DNA from: Escherichia coli
Lineage (GTDB): Bacteria; Pseudomonadota; Gammaproteobacteria; Enterobacterales; Enterobacteriaceae
Reading direction: 5' to 3' (one strand)
Length of the DNA: 64,000 bases
NCBI RefSeq assembly: GCF_024298765.1
Contig: NZ_CP101210.1
Positions 3,962 through 48,001 of this stretch are shown here, piece after piece. Below the pieces are notes generated by a model. That model saw only the letters and a program-made list of their open reading frames with translations, was not told the origin of the DNA and made no database searches. The position numbers and the translations under genes were made by a program. Each line of letters opens with the position of its first letter. Positions within the stretch are counted from its first letter, which is position 1.

Positions 3962-5233
<1,272 letters not shown>

Positions 5234-5257
5234 CTAGTGGGACAAAAAGATAAAACT

Positions 5258-5279
5258 CAGGCGGTCGAACGACCGCCTG
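5258..5279 (-). terminator. hairpin between acpP and fabF (partial terminator/attenuator)
   Basis: Perfect palindrome CAGGCGGTCG-aa-CGACCGCCTG downstream of the acpP stop. Confidence 0.55.
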
Positions 5280-5290
5280 GAGATGTTCAC

Positions 5291-5527
5291 TTACGCCTGG
5301 TGGCCGTTGATGTAATCAATGGCAGCCTGAACGGTGGTGATTTTCTCAGCTTCTTCGTCCGGAATCTCAGTATCAAACTCTTCTTCCAGAGCCATTACCA
5401 GCTCAACGGTGTCAAGAGAATCCGCGCCCAGGTCTTCAACGAAAGAAGCATTGTTGGTAACTTCTTCCTGCTTAACGCCCAGCTGTTCGCCGATAATTTT
5501 CTTAACGCGTTCTTCGATAGTGCTCAT
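5291..5527 (-). CDS. acpP: acyl carrier protein
   Basis: 78 aa [18 protein letters not shown]...[16 protein letters not shown] with the phosphopantetheine Ser motif. Confidence 0.97.
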
Positions 5528-42468: not shown

Positions 42469-42654
42469 ATGTCACCCTGTGAAAATGACACCCCTATAAA
42501 CTGGAAACGAAACCTGATCGTCGCCTGGCTAGGCTGTTTTCTTACCGGTGCCGCCTTCAGCCTGGTAATGCCCTTCTTACCCCTCTACGTTGAGCAGCTT
42601 GGCGTTACCGGCCACTCCGCCCTGAATATGTGGTCCGGTATTGTCTTCAGTATA
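42469..42654 (+). pseudogene. mdtG: mdtG 5' fragment (codons 1-62), truncated by the insertion
   Basis: [62 protein letters not shown], then out-of-context MGP-stop; the rest of the MFS protein resumes at ~46958. Confidence 0.85.
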
Positions 42655-42689
42655 ATGGGTCCCTAAACACATCATTTTAGGTATTGAAT

Positions 42690-44219
42690 ATGAGACGGGC
42701 AATCAGCTACATCAGATTTTCAAGTGAACGACAACTAAAAGGGGACTCTGTACGCAGACAATCTAAGCTGGTCACTGACTGGCTTGATAAGAACCCTGAG
42801 TTTTACTTGGATTCATCCTTGAGCTTTAAAGATTTGGGGAAAAGTGCTTTTAGTGGTAAGCACTTGAAAGGTGGCTTAGGTGACTTTTTAACCGCTATCG
42901 AGAAAGGGCTTGTTAAAGCTGGTGATACACTACTAATCGAGAGTTTAGACCGTCTCTCACGTCAGGATATTGATATTGCTTCTGAGCTATTACGTCGTAT
43001 CTTAAGGGCTGGTGTAGATATAGTCACACTGAGCGATGGTGAACATTACACACGAGAAAGTTTAAAAGACCCGTTATCCCTGATTAAAAGCATTCTGATA
43101 ATGCAGCGGGCGCATGAGGAAAGTCTGAGGAAGTCTGAGCGTGTCCAAGCTGCATGGAACCGTAAAAAAGAACTCATCTCCGAAGGTATCAAGGTATCTA
43201 GGCGTTGTCCTGCATGGTTAAGGCTGAATGATGACCGTCGAACATTCACTATCATCCCCGATAAAGTGGAAGTTGTTAAACGAGCATTTGACCTGAGATT
43301 ACAGGGTTTAAGCTTTTGGGCTATCACCAGAACTTTAAACGATGAAGGCCACTTGTCATTGAATCAATACACACCTAAACAAAAGGGATGGTCTGATACT
43401 GCTGTAAAGAAACTACTCAGAAATCGTGCTGTGATTGGATGTTTCACACCTGCTGGACGTGAAGAAGTTCAGGGTTACTACCCCGCAATAATCAGTGAGT
43501 CACTATTCTATCGAGTACAGCAACTGAACACAGGGCAATATGGTAGGGCTTCTGTATCAAGTAATCCGCTATCAGTCAACTTGTTCAGGGGTATCATCAA
43601 ATGTTCTGAGTGTGGGGCTACTATTGTTCTTGGTGGATATGCCTTAAAACGTTTTGGGATGTACAGATGCCCTAATCGTTCAGCTAACAGGTGTAGTGCA
43701 AAGGCTATCAGTCGTAAGCAAACGGATACAACTATCCTTTACATGCTCGCATTATGCGACCGTTTTGAAACTGAAAATACTGACACTATTGATAGCCTTA
43801 AATTACAGCGTGAAGATTTGCAGCGTAAAATCTCAAAAATGGCAGAACTCGCTATTGAACTCGATGACATGACAATTATCACAGAGAAATTACGTGATAT
43901 GAAGAATGCGCTATCAAAACTCAATCATGATATCGAAGAGGAAACAAAGCGGATAAAGGCCATCACAACTGGAAGCCTCAAAGATATTGACAGGACAACA
44001 AAGGAAGGGATGATAGAGACACAGCTACTTATCAAGGGCGTACTCAAAGAAATAGTTATAGATGCCGCTAAACGTCGCTGTAAAGTGACTTTTCACAACG
44101 GTAAGGTAATTGACCTACCTATAACAGAAAACCCCTCAGAGGACGTTACAGAGGCCATACAGTCGCTTTCTGAAGTCACTGAGAGGGGTTTAATAGATGT
44201 TGATGTAGTAGCGATTTAG
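42690..44219 (+). CDS. large serine recombinase (integrase)
   Basis: 509 aa from ATG 42690 (track begins 6 nt earlier at TTG): N-terminal resolvase domain with catalytic YIRFSSERQ, recombinase domain, Cys-rich zinc ribbon CSECG...CPNRSANRC, C-terminal coiled coil. Confidence 0.88.
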   Translation: MRRAISYIRFSSERQLKGDSVRRQSKLVTDWLDKNPEFYLDSSLSFKDLGKSAFSGKHLKGGLGDFLTAIEKGLVKAGDTLLIESLDRLSRQDIDIASELLRRILRAGVDIVTLSDGEHYTRESLKDPLSLIKSILIMQRAHEESLRKSERVQAAWNRKKELISEGIKVSRRCPAWLRLNDDRRTFTIIPDKVEVVKRAFDLRLQGLSFWAITRTLNDEGHLSLNQYTPKQKGWSDTAVKKLLRNRAVIGCFTPAGREEVQGYYPAIISESLFYRVQQLNTGQYGRASVSSNPLSVNLFRGIIKCSECGATIVLGGYALKRFGMYRCPNRSANRCSAKAISRKQTDTTILYMLALCDRFETENTDTIDSLKLQREDLQRKISKMAELAIELDDMTIITEKLRDMKNALSKLNHDIEEETKRIKAITTGSLKDIDRTTKEGMIETQLLIKGVLKEIVIDAAKRRCKVTFHNGKVIDLPITENPSEDVTEAIQSLSEVTERGLIDVDVVAI

Positions 44220-45380
44220 TATCTCTTATTAGGATTCACTGAGTACTTTTTAAGCTTTGAAGCTACCCGACCAGCGTTACTGTTAGCATTGGTGAGGTTG
44301 GTTTTTTCAGCTTCTTCACAAAAAAGCTTCAGAGGTCTTCTTAACCATCCGCTAAGCAGGAGAGAGGGTGGTACATGAGAAAGAACCCTCACTTCTAAAA
44401 AGATTTTTTAGCTATTTTGCTTAAAACCATATCAAAAGATACATTTTATTGATTCAGGTCAAAGACAAAAGCATTGACAAAATGGTAAAATTGTTCACAT
44501 GACCTTACTTAACAGACTTTTTAAGAGCTTTTGAGAAGCTTGTTGAACAGACACTCTTTCTGGAGTGTTGTCTTTTACTTAAGAGGTTTGTTTAGATAAC
44601 TCTCAAGGCATCTCTTAAGAATCACTGTTAAGGTGATACTCTCCCTTCGGGTTATATCGTATCTCTTCTCCCGTTAGACAGTTTTTCCTAGCAACTTCAT
44701 AGTTATCTGTCAAGTGCCTTTGAAGATTCCATCAAGACCTCTGAATCTGACCTGATATAGATGCTGTGAAGGCATATTCTCTAGGTCTGTGTAGCTTACT
44801 TAGTGGGAAGAGAGGGATATAGTGACCATAGGGGAACCCCTCCTGTTAAAAAGACTACTTAGAAGTCTGAGACTTTAGTAAAATCTGTGAATATAGCTTC
44901 TCAGACGCTCTGTAACGCATTCTAAGCGATTTTACCACCTTATTTTAAGGTGGGTGGTACATCCCTATAGGTTACCCTAAAAATGGGGTTAAAACTCGCT
45001 ACAGAGCTTTCTATGAGGCTTGGTAGAGTTGCATAAATTTTACACAACACTTATTCAGCTTCTAAATTTTTTTATAAAAAATCGTAGTAACCCCTCTACA
45101 TTCCCCTTCACCGATAATCTTCAAAAATATCTATCACAGGTCTATACCTGCTAAGTACCCGTCACTACGCCTAAGTGGTCCCCTTTGCAAAATTTTAAAA
45201 TATCTATTGACTTTTTATGTGAACTGTTATAAAGACCGCTCCATCTCTTAGGCATACCGTTATAGCATACTAAAAAGGTATAGCTAACCCCCTGTAAAAA
45301 CCATACCGATTAGCCTTGTAAAACACTTTATCGGTACATTATACTCAACTCATCAAATGAGTAAGGCAAATGAGTATATT

Positions 45381-45926
45381 ATGGCTAACATTGGTTATAT
45401 CCGAGTTTCATCAATCCAGCAGATTACAGACCGTCAACTTGAAGGGGTCGTACTGGATAAGATATTTACTGATAAAGCATCTGGGAAGAATACAGACCGT
45501 CCACAACTAAAGGCTATGCTCGATTATGTTCGTGAAGGTGATGTTATCCATGTACACGACTTGTCACGTTTAGGGCGCTCTACCGTGGATGTATTAACGC
45601 TGGTGGATAAACTTTCACAGAAAGGTATCAAGGTTCACTTTCACAAAGAAGGTCTGATAACTGGTGACGATAACCCCACGTCTAAGATGATTCTCACAAT
45701 CTTTTCAGCAGTGGCTGAAGCTGAACGTAAAATGATGCTTGAGCGTCAACGAGAAGGCTATGAAGCTGCTAAAGCTGCTGGTCGTGTAGTTGGAAGGGGT
45801 AACGGTAAAGCGGTTGACAGAGAAGGTATTAAAGCTGCTCTTGCTGCTGGTGGTTCAATCGCTAAAGTAGCCGCTCAATTCAACGTTGCCAAGTCAACTG
45901 TACAGCGTATTAAAGCTGAAGATTAA
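45381..45926 (+). CDS. small serine recombinase, resolvase/invertase family
   Basis: ~181 aa from MANIGYIRVSS (catalytic Ser), IFTDKASG, LSRLGRS, SAVAEAERK, C-terminal HTH; the track ORF starts 8 codons earlier at 45357. Confidence 0.85.
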   Translation: MANIGYIRVSSIQQITDRQLEGVVLDKIFTDKASGKNTDRPQLKAMLDYVREGDVIHVHDLSRLGRSTVDVLTLVDKLSQKGIKVHFHKEGLITGDDNPTSKMILTIFSAVAEAERKMMLERQREGYEAAKAAGRVVGRGNGKAVDREGIKAALAAGGSIAKVAAQFNVAKSTVQRIKAED

Positions 45927-45939
45927 GTCAGGAAATACA

Positions 45940-46623
45940 TTAGATTTTTCTTCCAAATAAACTTGGGAGATTCTTACGGTTTCTTGCTTGCATCATTATT
46001 TCTGGGCTAACAAGTTTTTTTAATTCGCTTCTGTACTCATCAATAGAACACTCATCCGCAACAAGTTTTGAAATCAGGTCTTCAATAGACATAACATCTT
46101 GTTGCAGGAAATCAAGTTCACGAGACAAGTGCTTTTTTTGATTCTCTAACTTTCCTATCTCAGCATTTAAGTTATCTACATCTGTCGCCAATTTCTCTGC
46201 CTGAGATTTCAAATTACTTGTATCTTCTTTTTCTCTTTCGATAAGGTTTTTTTGTTTCTCAATCTTCAACTTTGACGTCAGTCTAGCTGACTCTTCAAGA
46301 TTTTCAGCTTCTACTTTTTGTCTTGCTCGCCATGCGGTTGCCTTGATTTGAAGTAGTGTTACAAGGTTGCTGAAGTAAGGGAAAAAGGTCGCCAAAATGA
46401 ACCCTAGCCCTACGGGATAGCATAATGTTTTTAGATAGAAGTCTTCCGTCGATGTGATTTGTTGAATACGAGTAACAACCGAAGCCTCACTAAGACACAT
46501 GATAGCAATGCTTTTCCAGTTAAATCCCACCCATGACAAAATGATGTAGCCCCATAAAGGGTTAGCTACTCGTTCCTTCAACGCCTGCTTAACTGATTCC
46601 GTGATACTTTCTTCACTACTCAC
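45940..46623 (-). CDS. hypothetical membrane-anchored coiled-coil protein (227 aa)
   Basis: Two N-terminal hydrophobic helices (PLWGYIILSWVGFNW..., VGLGFILATFFPYFSNLVTLL), then ~120 aa of charged heptad-like sequence; no family recognised. Confidence 0.65.
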   Translation of the reverse strand: MSSEESITESVKQALKERVANPLWGYIILSWVGFNWKSIAIMCLSEASVVTRIQQITSTEDFYLKTLCYPVGLGFILATFFPYFSNLVTLLQIKATAWRARQKVEAENLEESARLTSKLKIEKQKNLIEREKEDTSNLKSQAEKLATDVDNLNAEIGKLENQKKHLSRELDFLQQDVMSIEDLISKLVADECSIDEYRSELKKLVSPEIMMQARNRKNLPSLFGRKI

Positions 46624-46957
46624 AATTACTGCTCCATAGAAAACTCTGGTTTGAGAAATTTTAATGCGAATCCAATCAGTTAGATAGACCTGTAAATAGC
46701 AATTTTATAGAAGTCGAGAGAGGGATGACTAACACCCTGCATAGTTTCCTGAAAAGAGACTTCGCATATTATCTATATATTTCAATAAGTTATGCTAAAA
46801 AGGAACTATACCAATACTGCATAGATTCTGCGTAAAACTGCTTGGATACTTGGAAATCCACCATTAAATTGCATAGTCATTCACCTGATAAAGCCTGTTA
46901 TTAACAGGTGATAGGATTCGGATGTTCTCATAGTGTATTTAGGGAATTAATATCAGC

Positions 46958-48001
46958 ATTACATTTTTATTTTCGGCCATCGCCTCACCGTTTTGGGGTG
47001 GACTCGCCGACCGTAAAGGCCGAAAACTCATGCTATTACGCTCTGCCCTCGGCATGGGCATCGTGATGGTGTTGATGGGACTGGCACAAAATATCTGGCA
47101 GTTTTTGATCCTGCGGGCGCTTCTTGGGTTACTTGGCGGATTTGTCCCCAACGCTAATGCTCTTATCGCCACACAAGTACCGCGTAATAAAAGCGGCTGG
47201 GCGCTGGGTACGCTCTCCACAGGCGGCGTTAGTGGTGCGTTGCTCGGCCCAATGGCTGGCGGCCTGCTCGCCGATAGCTACGGCTTACGTCCGGTATTCT
47301 TTATTACCGCCAGTGTGCTCATACTCTGCTTTTTCGTCACCCTGTTCTGCATCAGAGAAAAATTCCAGCCGGTCAGCAAAAAAGAGATGCTGCACATGCG
47401 GGAAGTGGTGACATCACTTAAAAACCCGAAACTGGTACTCAGCCTGTTTGTCACCACGTTAATCATCCAGGTGGCGACAGGCTCAATTGCCCCCATTCTG
47501 ACGCTGTATGTCCGCGAACTGGCGGGTAACGTCAGTAACGTCGCCTTTATCAGTGGCATGATCGCCTCGGTGCCAGGCGTGGCGGCTCTGCTAAGCGCAC
47601 CACGACTCGGCAAACTTGGCGATCGAATCGGACCCGAAAAGATCCTGATTACAGCGCTGATCTTTTCTGTACTGCTGTTGATCCCAATGTCTTACGTTCA
47701 GACGCCATTGCAACTTGGGATTTTACGTTTTTTGCTCGGTGCCGCCGATGGTGCACTACTCCCCGCCGTACAGACACTGTTGGTTTACAACTCGAGCAAC
47801 CAGATCGCCGGGCGTATCTTCAGCTATAACCAATCGTTTCGTGATATTGGCAACGTTACCGGACCATTGATGGGAGCAGCGATTTCAGCGAACTACGGTT
47901 TCAGAGCGGTATTTCTCGTCACCGCTGGCGTCGTGTTATTCAACGCAGTCTATTCATGGAACAGTCTACGTCGTCGTCGAATACCCCAGGTATCGAACTG
48001 A
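46958..48001 (+). pseudogene. mdtG: mdtG 3' fragment (codons ~63-408), separated from its start
   Basis: Frame resumes ...[35 protein letters not shown]... to the native stop; the track shows only the internal-Met ORF 47030-48001. Confidence 0.85.

Follow-up and report, generated by a model that had tools for sequence, protein, structure and literature searches.

Among the exclusion systems closest to the gene studied here, SieB of phages λ and P22 (PF14163) is made in the lysogen and excludes phages by a mechanism of the abortive type. T4 Imm, P22 SieA and HK97 gp15 are the models for exclusion by a block of phage entry. Small membrane-spanning modules, residing on mobile elements or in defence islands, are also found in RexB and in the transmembrane (TM) effectors of CBASS, Pycsar and retrons. 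Membrane effectors in such settings are believed to kill infected cells or arrest them (PMC9122126, PMC9519451), and a membrane-anchored coiled-coil protein with DUF4041 and a nuclease has been described (PMC9519451).

Here we analyzed a stretch of 64,000 nucleotides of Escherichia coli DNA (hereafter, the window), in which a minus-strand ORF at positions 45940-46623 encodes a protein of this general kind, together with the family to which it belongs. The likeness to λ SieB lies both in the setting, a lone prophage-borne gene transcribed against its neighbours, and in the layout, two N-terminal hydrophobic helices followed by a basic cluster and a predicted cytoplasmic C-terminal part. The C-terminal parts themselves differ, being globular in SieB and a coiled coil of 100-270 residues in the present family. 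To our knowledge, SieB also has no allele structure combining a constant N-terminal with a variable C-terminal part. Homology was ruled out: hhalign gave a probability of 0.5% against a 10-sequence SieB alignment, and PF14163 matched neither the query nor any of 94 family members. By layout and setting, the window protein appears to be an analogue of SieB, not a homologue.

The comparison with the abortive-infection membrane effectors is similar. These act with a separate sensor or signal-generating partner, or contain a nuclease domain, whereas the present family consists of a single gene, without enzymatic domain and without any model match over its N-terminal module. Against PADLOC-DB v2.0, the query and 10 diverse family members had LmuB, JetC and PbeC matches, all confined to the coiled coil. 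Those to the coiled-coil arms of the SMC-like LmuB and JetC were weak (E 2e-5 to 1e-2) and limited to residues ~90-205, and the family has neither an ATPase head nor partner genes. Kinship with LmuB and JetC was thus rejected, the matches reflecting coiled-coil composition only. Altogether, no homology to a validated defence or exclusion protein was found with PADLOC, Pfam or the SieB profile.

The ORF is a real gene. It has 227 codons, beginning with GTG, and RefSeq annotates at the same coordinates a 684-bp CDS for a hypothetical protein (WP_001723372.1). A GGAG ribosome-binding site is found 8 nt 5' of the start codon, and farther upstream a sigma-70-like match scores 9/12, weak evidence as it comes from a consensus scan; such a scan found no terminator-like site for the gene in the window. 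The upstream region is also kept in loci L005 and L060. In the E. coli search, the reading frame was intact and identical in 7 genomes, and relative to GB089 it differs by 1 non-synonymous and 4 synonymous changes. As the surrounding element is internally deleted, and as disrupted copies of the family gene occur elsewhere (P0010, P0011, P0014 and P0021), we asked whether the gene could be a decaying, non-functional remnant in a degraded element. The state of the frame, the few and mostly synonymous changes, a family signature retained in full and a confident structural model all argue against this, and we regard it as highly improbable.

The initial annotation had described two hydrophobic helices in the first ~90 residues, followed by a long charged region with heptad-like periodicity, and both descriptions were borne out. 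The hydrophobic segments cover residues ~23-43 (mean Kyte-Doolittle 1.2) and ~62-92 (top 19-residue window 1.67). Within the charged region (residues 95-190), the power at period 3.5 exceeded that of 99.7% of 5,000 shuffles, and a single continuous register places hydrophobic residues at 63% of the a/d positions. AlphaFold2, run with a 94-sequence alignment, produced a model with a pLDDT of 94.2, which superseded a poor one (pLDDT 67) obtained with 9 sequences only. The predicted helices (residues 3-20, 22-34, 36-44, 49-57 and 62-188) correspond to a short amphipathic helix, a first membrane helix kinked at N35-W36, a short loop helix and a long helix. The latter runs unbroken over 127 residues, from the second TM helix straight into the coiled coil. 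Basic residues are found before the first hydrophobic helix and just after the second, and the loop between them is acidic; this charge distribution suggests that both termini are cytoplasmic (N-in/C-in). Such a topology is not certain, because the hydrophobicity of the first helix is only moderate and a lysine lies within it.

The protein had been called an orphan, devoid of enzymatic motif and of any recognised family. Indeed, no enzymatic or named domain was detected in it with Pfam, NCBIfam or PADLOC. It has nevertheless many relatives. A search with the profile of its first 110 residues collected, among 1.84 billion proteins, no fewer than 1,280 clusters (50% identity), 93 of them at E <= 1e-10, and homologues of the protein number thousands. 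In every match, the module is at the N-terminus, and the proteins are ~190-380 aa long. Two residues, N35 and W36, are invariant, R18, P22, P70 and P82 near-invariant, and the C-termini are uniformly charged, helical, low in proline and glycine and without known domains. By its signature and its charged helical C-terminus, the window protein is a member of this 2TM-coiled-coil family.

The family has no name: Pfam, NCBIfam, PADLOC and the PDB lack it, and only PHROGs of unknown function include it. These PHROGs (phrog_4780, 13369, 8191, 22645 and 35327) match at E 2e-16 to 1e-9, starting at residue 3-7 and spanning the membrane module (residues 3-204 overall). They are true homologues, which adds an association with phages and not a function. 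Pfam domains were found in neither the query nor the 94 family members, NCBIfam returned coiled-coil noise only, and the PDB gave no match by sequence profile. Structure-based searches with Foldseek returned no named homologue either, with no match in the PDB or BFVD and, in AFDB50, only homologues labelled 'Uncharacterized protein', from Enterobacterales, Vibrio, Shewanella, Idiomarina, Dyella and many Bacteroidota. The gene is present in only 3-4 of 50,697 deposited phage genomes, and nothing specific on the 2TM-coiled-coil family was found in the literature searched.

We then compared alleles. Among those of E. coli, residues 1-100 are 95-100% identical, and from residue 136 to the end two unrelated types are found, A and B, with 11-12% identity. 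The two parts are joined by a mosaic linker, where per-codon identity drops and where the breakpoints are located (codons ~111-131); Megablast matches in other E. coli genomes stop at ORF nt 332, 366 or 393. Among ε15-like prophages, in a comparison limited to pairs with portal and terL more than 90% identical, the N-terminal module is 97-100% identical and the C-terminal part falls into classes of ~1.0, 0.67 and 0.3. The membrane module is constant and the coiled-coil tail is swapped, in two independent lineages. Coiled coils diverge fast even in the absence of an arms race.

Two local sources of variation were considered and discarded. The first was a shufflon, with silent cassettes in the 1.1-kb ORF-free stretch next to the small recombinase gene, joined at TTCAGCTTCT repeats (positions 44304, 45052 and 46301). 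The stretch has stops in all frames and is conserved backbone, and the ORF at 44216-44392 is a Dit-like remnant. The second was an invertible promoter. Neither the promoter nor the gene is flanked by convincing inverted repeats, and all E. coli copies have one and the same orientation.

The gene lies in an insert within the E. coli chromosome, in the order yceI-trhO-lpxL-mdtG'-insert-'mdtG-msyB-yceK-mdoH (coordinates of the main features are collected in Table 1). The multidrug efflux gene mdtG is cut into two parts at 42469-42666 and 46943-48001, which are annotated as two pseudogene fragments in RefSeq genomes with the same insert. Comparison with the empty site of MG1655 gave an attB core TCAG and dyad-like arms, at 42651-42670 for attL and 46931-46951 for attR. 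Inside the insert, the small serine recombinase gene is convergent with the ORF, with a gap of 13 bp to the ORF stop.

Table 1. Position, strand and basis of the features of the locus (window coordinates).
Feature	Coordinates	Strand	Description or evidence
Whole ORF	45940..46623	-	227 aa; two TM helices and coiled coil; ORF list, RefSeq CDS, AlphaFold2
Upstream region	46624..46740	-	GGAG at 46632-46635; sigma-70-like match 46731..46702
Constant N-terminal module (codons 1-110)	46294..46623	-	Amphipathic helix, TM1, ~17-residue predicted periplasmic loop, TM2, basic cluster
Variable C-terminal module (codons 111-227), allele type A	45940..46293	-	Heptad coiled coil and two short terminal helices
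Recombination breakpoint zone (codons ~111-131)	46231..46292	-	Megablast ends and per-codon identity drop
Integrated element splitting mdtG	42651..46952	.	4.3 kb; set against empty MG1655 site
Large serine recombinase (integrase)	42684..44219	+	phrog_95, E 1e-80; same integrase, same site in strain A1
Small serine recombinase (resolvase/invertase type)	45357..45926	+	phrog_125, E 2e-58
Dit-like gene 3'-end remnant, 58-aa ORF	44216..44392	-	C-terminal peptide KKYSVNPNK matches Dit_like gene of L005
ORF-free stretch of parent element	44394..45356	.	5' of small recombinase; stops in all six frames

Strain A1 (L050) carries an 11.7-kb element at this site, in which a small serine recombinase gene is followed by genes for a Dam-like methylase, an HTH protein, small unknown proteins, a tape-measure protein, a Dit-like ('baseplate') protein and the integrase; L005 to L010 belong to the same family of elements. 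In the window, the 3' remnant of the Dit-like gene is followed by a jump to the ORF-free backbone, so that the insert is an internal deletion derivative. Similarity to L004 stops at 44315, similarity to L003 begins at 44394, and the deletion junction is placed at ~44394. The window copy is thus what a deletion left of an 11-12-kb element, and did not arise as a minimal element with a single gene at its centre. The initial annotation had taken the gene for the sole cargo of its element, which has to be abandoned, as the insert also carries the small serine recombinase and derives from that larger element.

The parent element deserves a description of its own. It contains the large serine recombinase, Dit-like, TMP_3 tape-measure, HTH and small serine recombinase genes, as well as about six small genes lacking a PHROG match, and it is devoid of capsid, portal, terminase and lysis genes. 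It looks like a satellite carrying tail parts, and fits none of the satellite classes that we found; no description of a tape-measure-carrying satellite in E. coli was found in the literature searched. Of 5,426 complete E. coli genomes, 448 have its ORF-free stretch of ~1 kb, with 80-95% conservation, and no feature is annotated there in any of these. Rfam detected nothing in the stretch, RNA fold z-scores were only -2.4 and -1.3, and its counterpart in A1 holds the Dam-like orphan methyltransferase. Within the stretch, a segment of ~130-160 bp (44863-45025) has another place and the opposite orientation in the window compared with L003, L004, L005 and L028. It forms a direct repeat in L003 (3552-3678 and 5245-5348) and an inverted repeat, 2.8 kb apart, in L002 (2947-3051 and 5822-5916). 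This segment may serve the small recombinase as a site, or be a regulatory region that was duplicated.

The gene is an optional component of these elements. Among the same 5,426 genomes, the full insert was found in 6-8, the full allele in 9 and the N-terminal module of the gene in 34, to be set against the 448 with the backbone. L003 keeps window positions 45140-45920 and 46679-46880, with 208 bp where the gene would be, and in the A1 element the gene slot is empty and its flanks are kept. The family gene is present or absent between related elements whose flanks are conserved, and is in this respect a phage moron or accessory cargo gene. P0023 has a collinear homologue, 39% identical, beside a recombinase 96% identical to that of the window, in an element that differs from the window's and has a tyrosine integrase.

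Two observations were made at the edge of the gene. At ~45920, immediately after the end of the recombinase gene, lies a junction that recurs in L003 and L018, and the 21 nt at 45922-45942 are 76% complementary to the attR arm. Together they may mark a cargo slot.

Proximity to small recombinases raises the question of an accessory role unrelated to defence, in which the protein would be a tether or regulator working with the small serine recombinase or, alternatively, a lysogenic-conversion factor altering envelope physiology. Recombinases of this kind, of four types with 25-40% mutual identity, adjoin family members in at least five contexts, in unrelated elements, and within E. coli recombinase type and C-terminal allele type co-segregate. 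However, no recombinase is near the gene in the lambdoid, ε15-like, P2-like, T7-like and tiny-islet contexts described below, and in L003 and A1 the recombinase is present although the gene is missing. Reuse of the ~45920 junction also points to a cargo slot rather than to a functional pair. A role of this type is in our opinion unlikely.

We next examined genomic contexts across the family, using a related-loci search run with a 10-sequence alignment. Every informative locus was a prophage or an integrative element, in a sample which is small (~13 distinct contexts, with defence-model neighbours in only four). In two lambdoid Klebsiella phages (L014 and L015), the gene stands alone on the opposite strand between the replication gene P/MarR and ninB. 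In Uetakevirus/ε15-like phages it is also on the opposite strand, between terL and portal, a slot found in 13-14 of 22 IMG/VR loci. In T7-like prophages it lies between the scaffold and capsid genes and is transcribed in their direction. A tyrosine-integrase islet of ~3 kb has the family gene as its sole cargo, and in one context the gene lies 3' of a CI-like repressor, in the same operon. The view of the initial annotation, of a small membrane-anchored protein borne by an integrative element, agrees with these contexts and with the optional presence of the gene.

Some of these slots are shared with defence genes. In two P2-like prophages, the family gene is found between gpA and portal, in the gpA-gpQ region, a validated defence hotspot of P2 (PMC9122126). 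One of these copies (L051) adjoins a PD-T7-3 homologue (E 1e-155). Elsewhere, two AbiTii proteins, a ThsA-like protein and an HNH-effector-like protein, all matching defence models, are neighbours of family members. In this small sample, the family gene resides in a defence hotspot in two cases and next to defence-related genes in others, and the operon of the CI-like repressor also counts among the recognised positions for defence or exclusion genes. The region of L051 from 4096 to 5484 contains, in addition to the PD-T7-3 homologue, unannotated genes of 228, 260 and 613 aa, which may be further defence candidates.

A two-gene operon was ruled out: the upstream genes in L005 (221 aa) and L051 (228 aa) are unrelated, and the window has neither. 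With upstream neighbours that share no kinship from one context to another, the family gene behaves like a cassette of one gene.

The phage contexts also bear on a function in lysis, as a holin, an antiholin or a spanin-like protein. The product is a small membrane protein with a coiled coil, and PHROG matches to an Rz-like spanin (E 0.0026) and to a 'hol-like' family (E 0.00055) were obtained. These matches are weak and cover the coiled coil only, and the basic cluster after TM2 speaks for a coiled coil in the cytoplasm rather than in the periplasm. Moreover, L014 and L015 have their own holin, endolysin and spanin cassettes, outside which the gene lies, on the opposite strand, and the gene is also found in elements without lysis genes. 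We consider a lysis protein very unlikely.

The initial annotation had suggested, as a hypothesis, an abortive-infection or superinfection-exclusion factor, a reasonable proposal to which the contexts now lend support. From context and architecture, some anti-phage role for the family seems to us rather probable. The more precise reading that we favour, and which we put forward tentatively, at somewhat less than an even chance, is an exclusion of the abortive type, in which the tail would be the sensor and the membrane module the effector. The gene, a mobile-element accessory gene or moron, would be expressed in the lysogen. Its product would sit in the inner membrane, N- and C-terminus both in the cytoplasm, and consist of the two-helix module followed by the long cytoplasmic coiled coil. 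The exchangeable tail would recognise a cytoplasmic component or process of the invading phage, and this recognition would alter the oligomeric state of the conserved membrane module. The altered module would in turn compromise the membrane or the proton-motive force, and the competing phage would be excluded. Several points weigh against this reading: no relative among validated defence or exclusion proteins was detected, defence-model neighbours occur in four contexts only, divergence of coiled coils is fast in general, the gene is co-directional in T7-like prophages, few deposited phage genomes contain it, and the topology is uncertain.

Superinfection exclusion could also operate earlier, by blocking genome entry at the inner membrane without killing the cell, the hairpin and its periplasmic loop disturbing the ejection channel. 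The mobile-element, lysogen-expressed context suits such a block as well as it suits the abortive model, and the membrane module, including its short predicted periplasmic loop, is the most conserved part of the protein. The tape-measure protein is the phage component that reaches the inner membrane, and the parent element encodes one. However, what alleles exchange is the tail, predicted to lie in the cytoplasm, which is hard to reconcile with recognition from outside, and no homology to known entry blockers was detected with Pfam or PHROGs. We hold an entry block to be improbable.

Returning to the abortive type of exclusion, a broader form can be proposed, as a possibility that we hold more doubtful. 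The family would be a widespread and so far unrecognised single-gene anti-phage family of Proteobacteria and Bacteroidota, in which the membrane module would be a latent pore or depolarising effector. The coiled coil would be a cassette acting as sensor, its specificity being reprogrammed by recombination at a fixed joint after TM2.

In conclusion, context and architecture make it likely that this new, uncharacterised family consists of single membrane proteins of mobile elements that exclude phages. If it is anti-phage, the system would be a compact one, a single gene of ~230-380 aa without enzymatic domain. The family is missing from current defence annotation tools, yet is found in prophage moron slots and P2 hotspots. 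Discrete tails on an identical membrane module, in near-identical phage backbones, amount to a natural tail-swap experiment for a candidate coiled-coil sensor. As for E. coli itself, the 'hypothetical protein' found in the mdtG scar is the surviving cargo of a common element of the species, present in ~8% of complete genomes.
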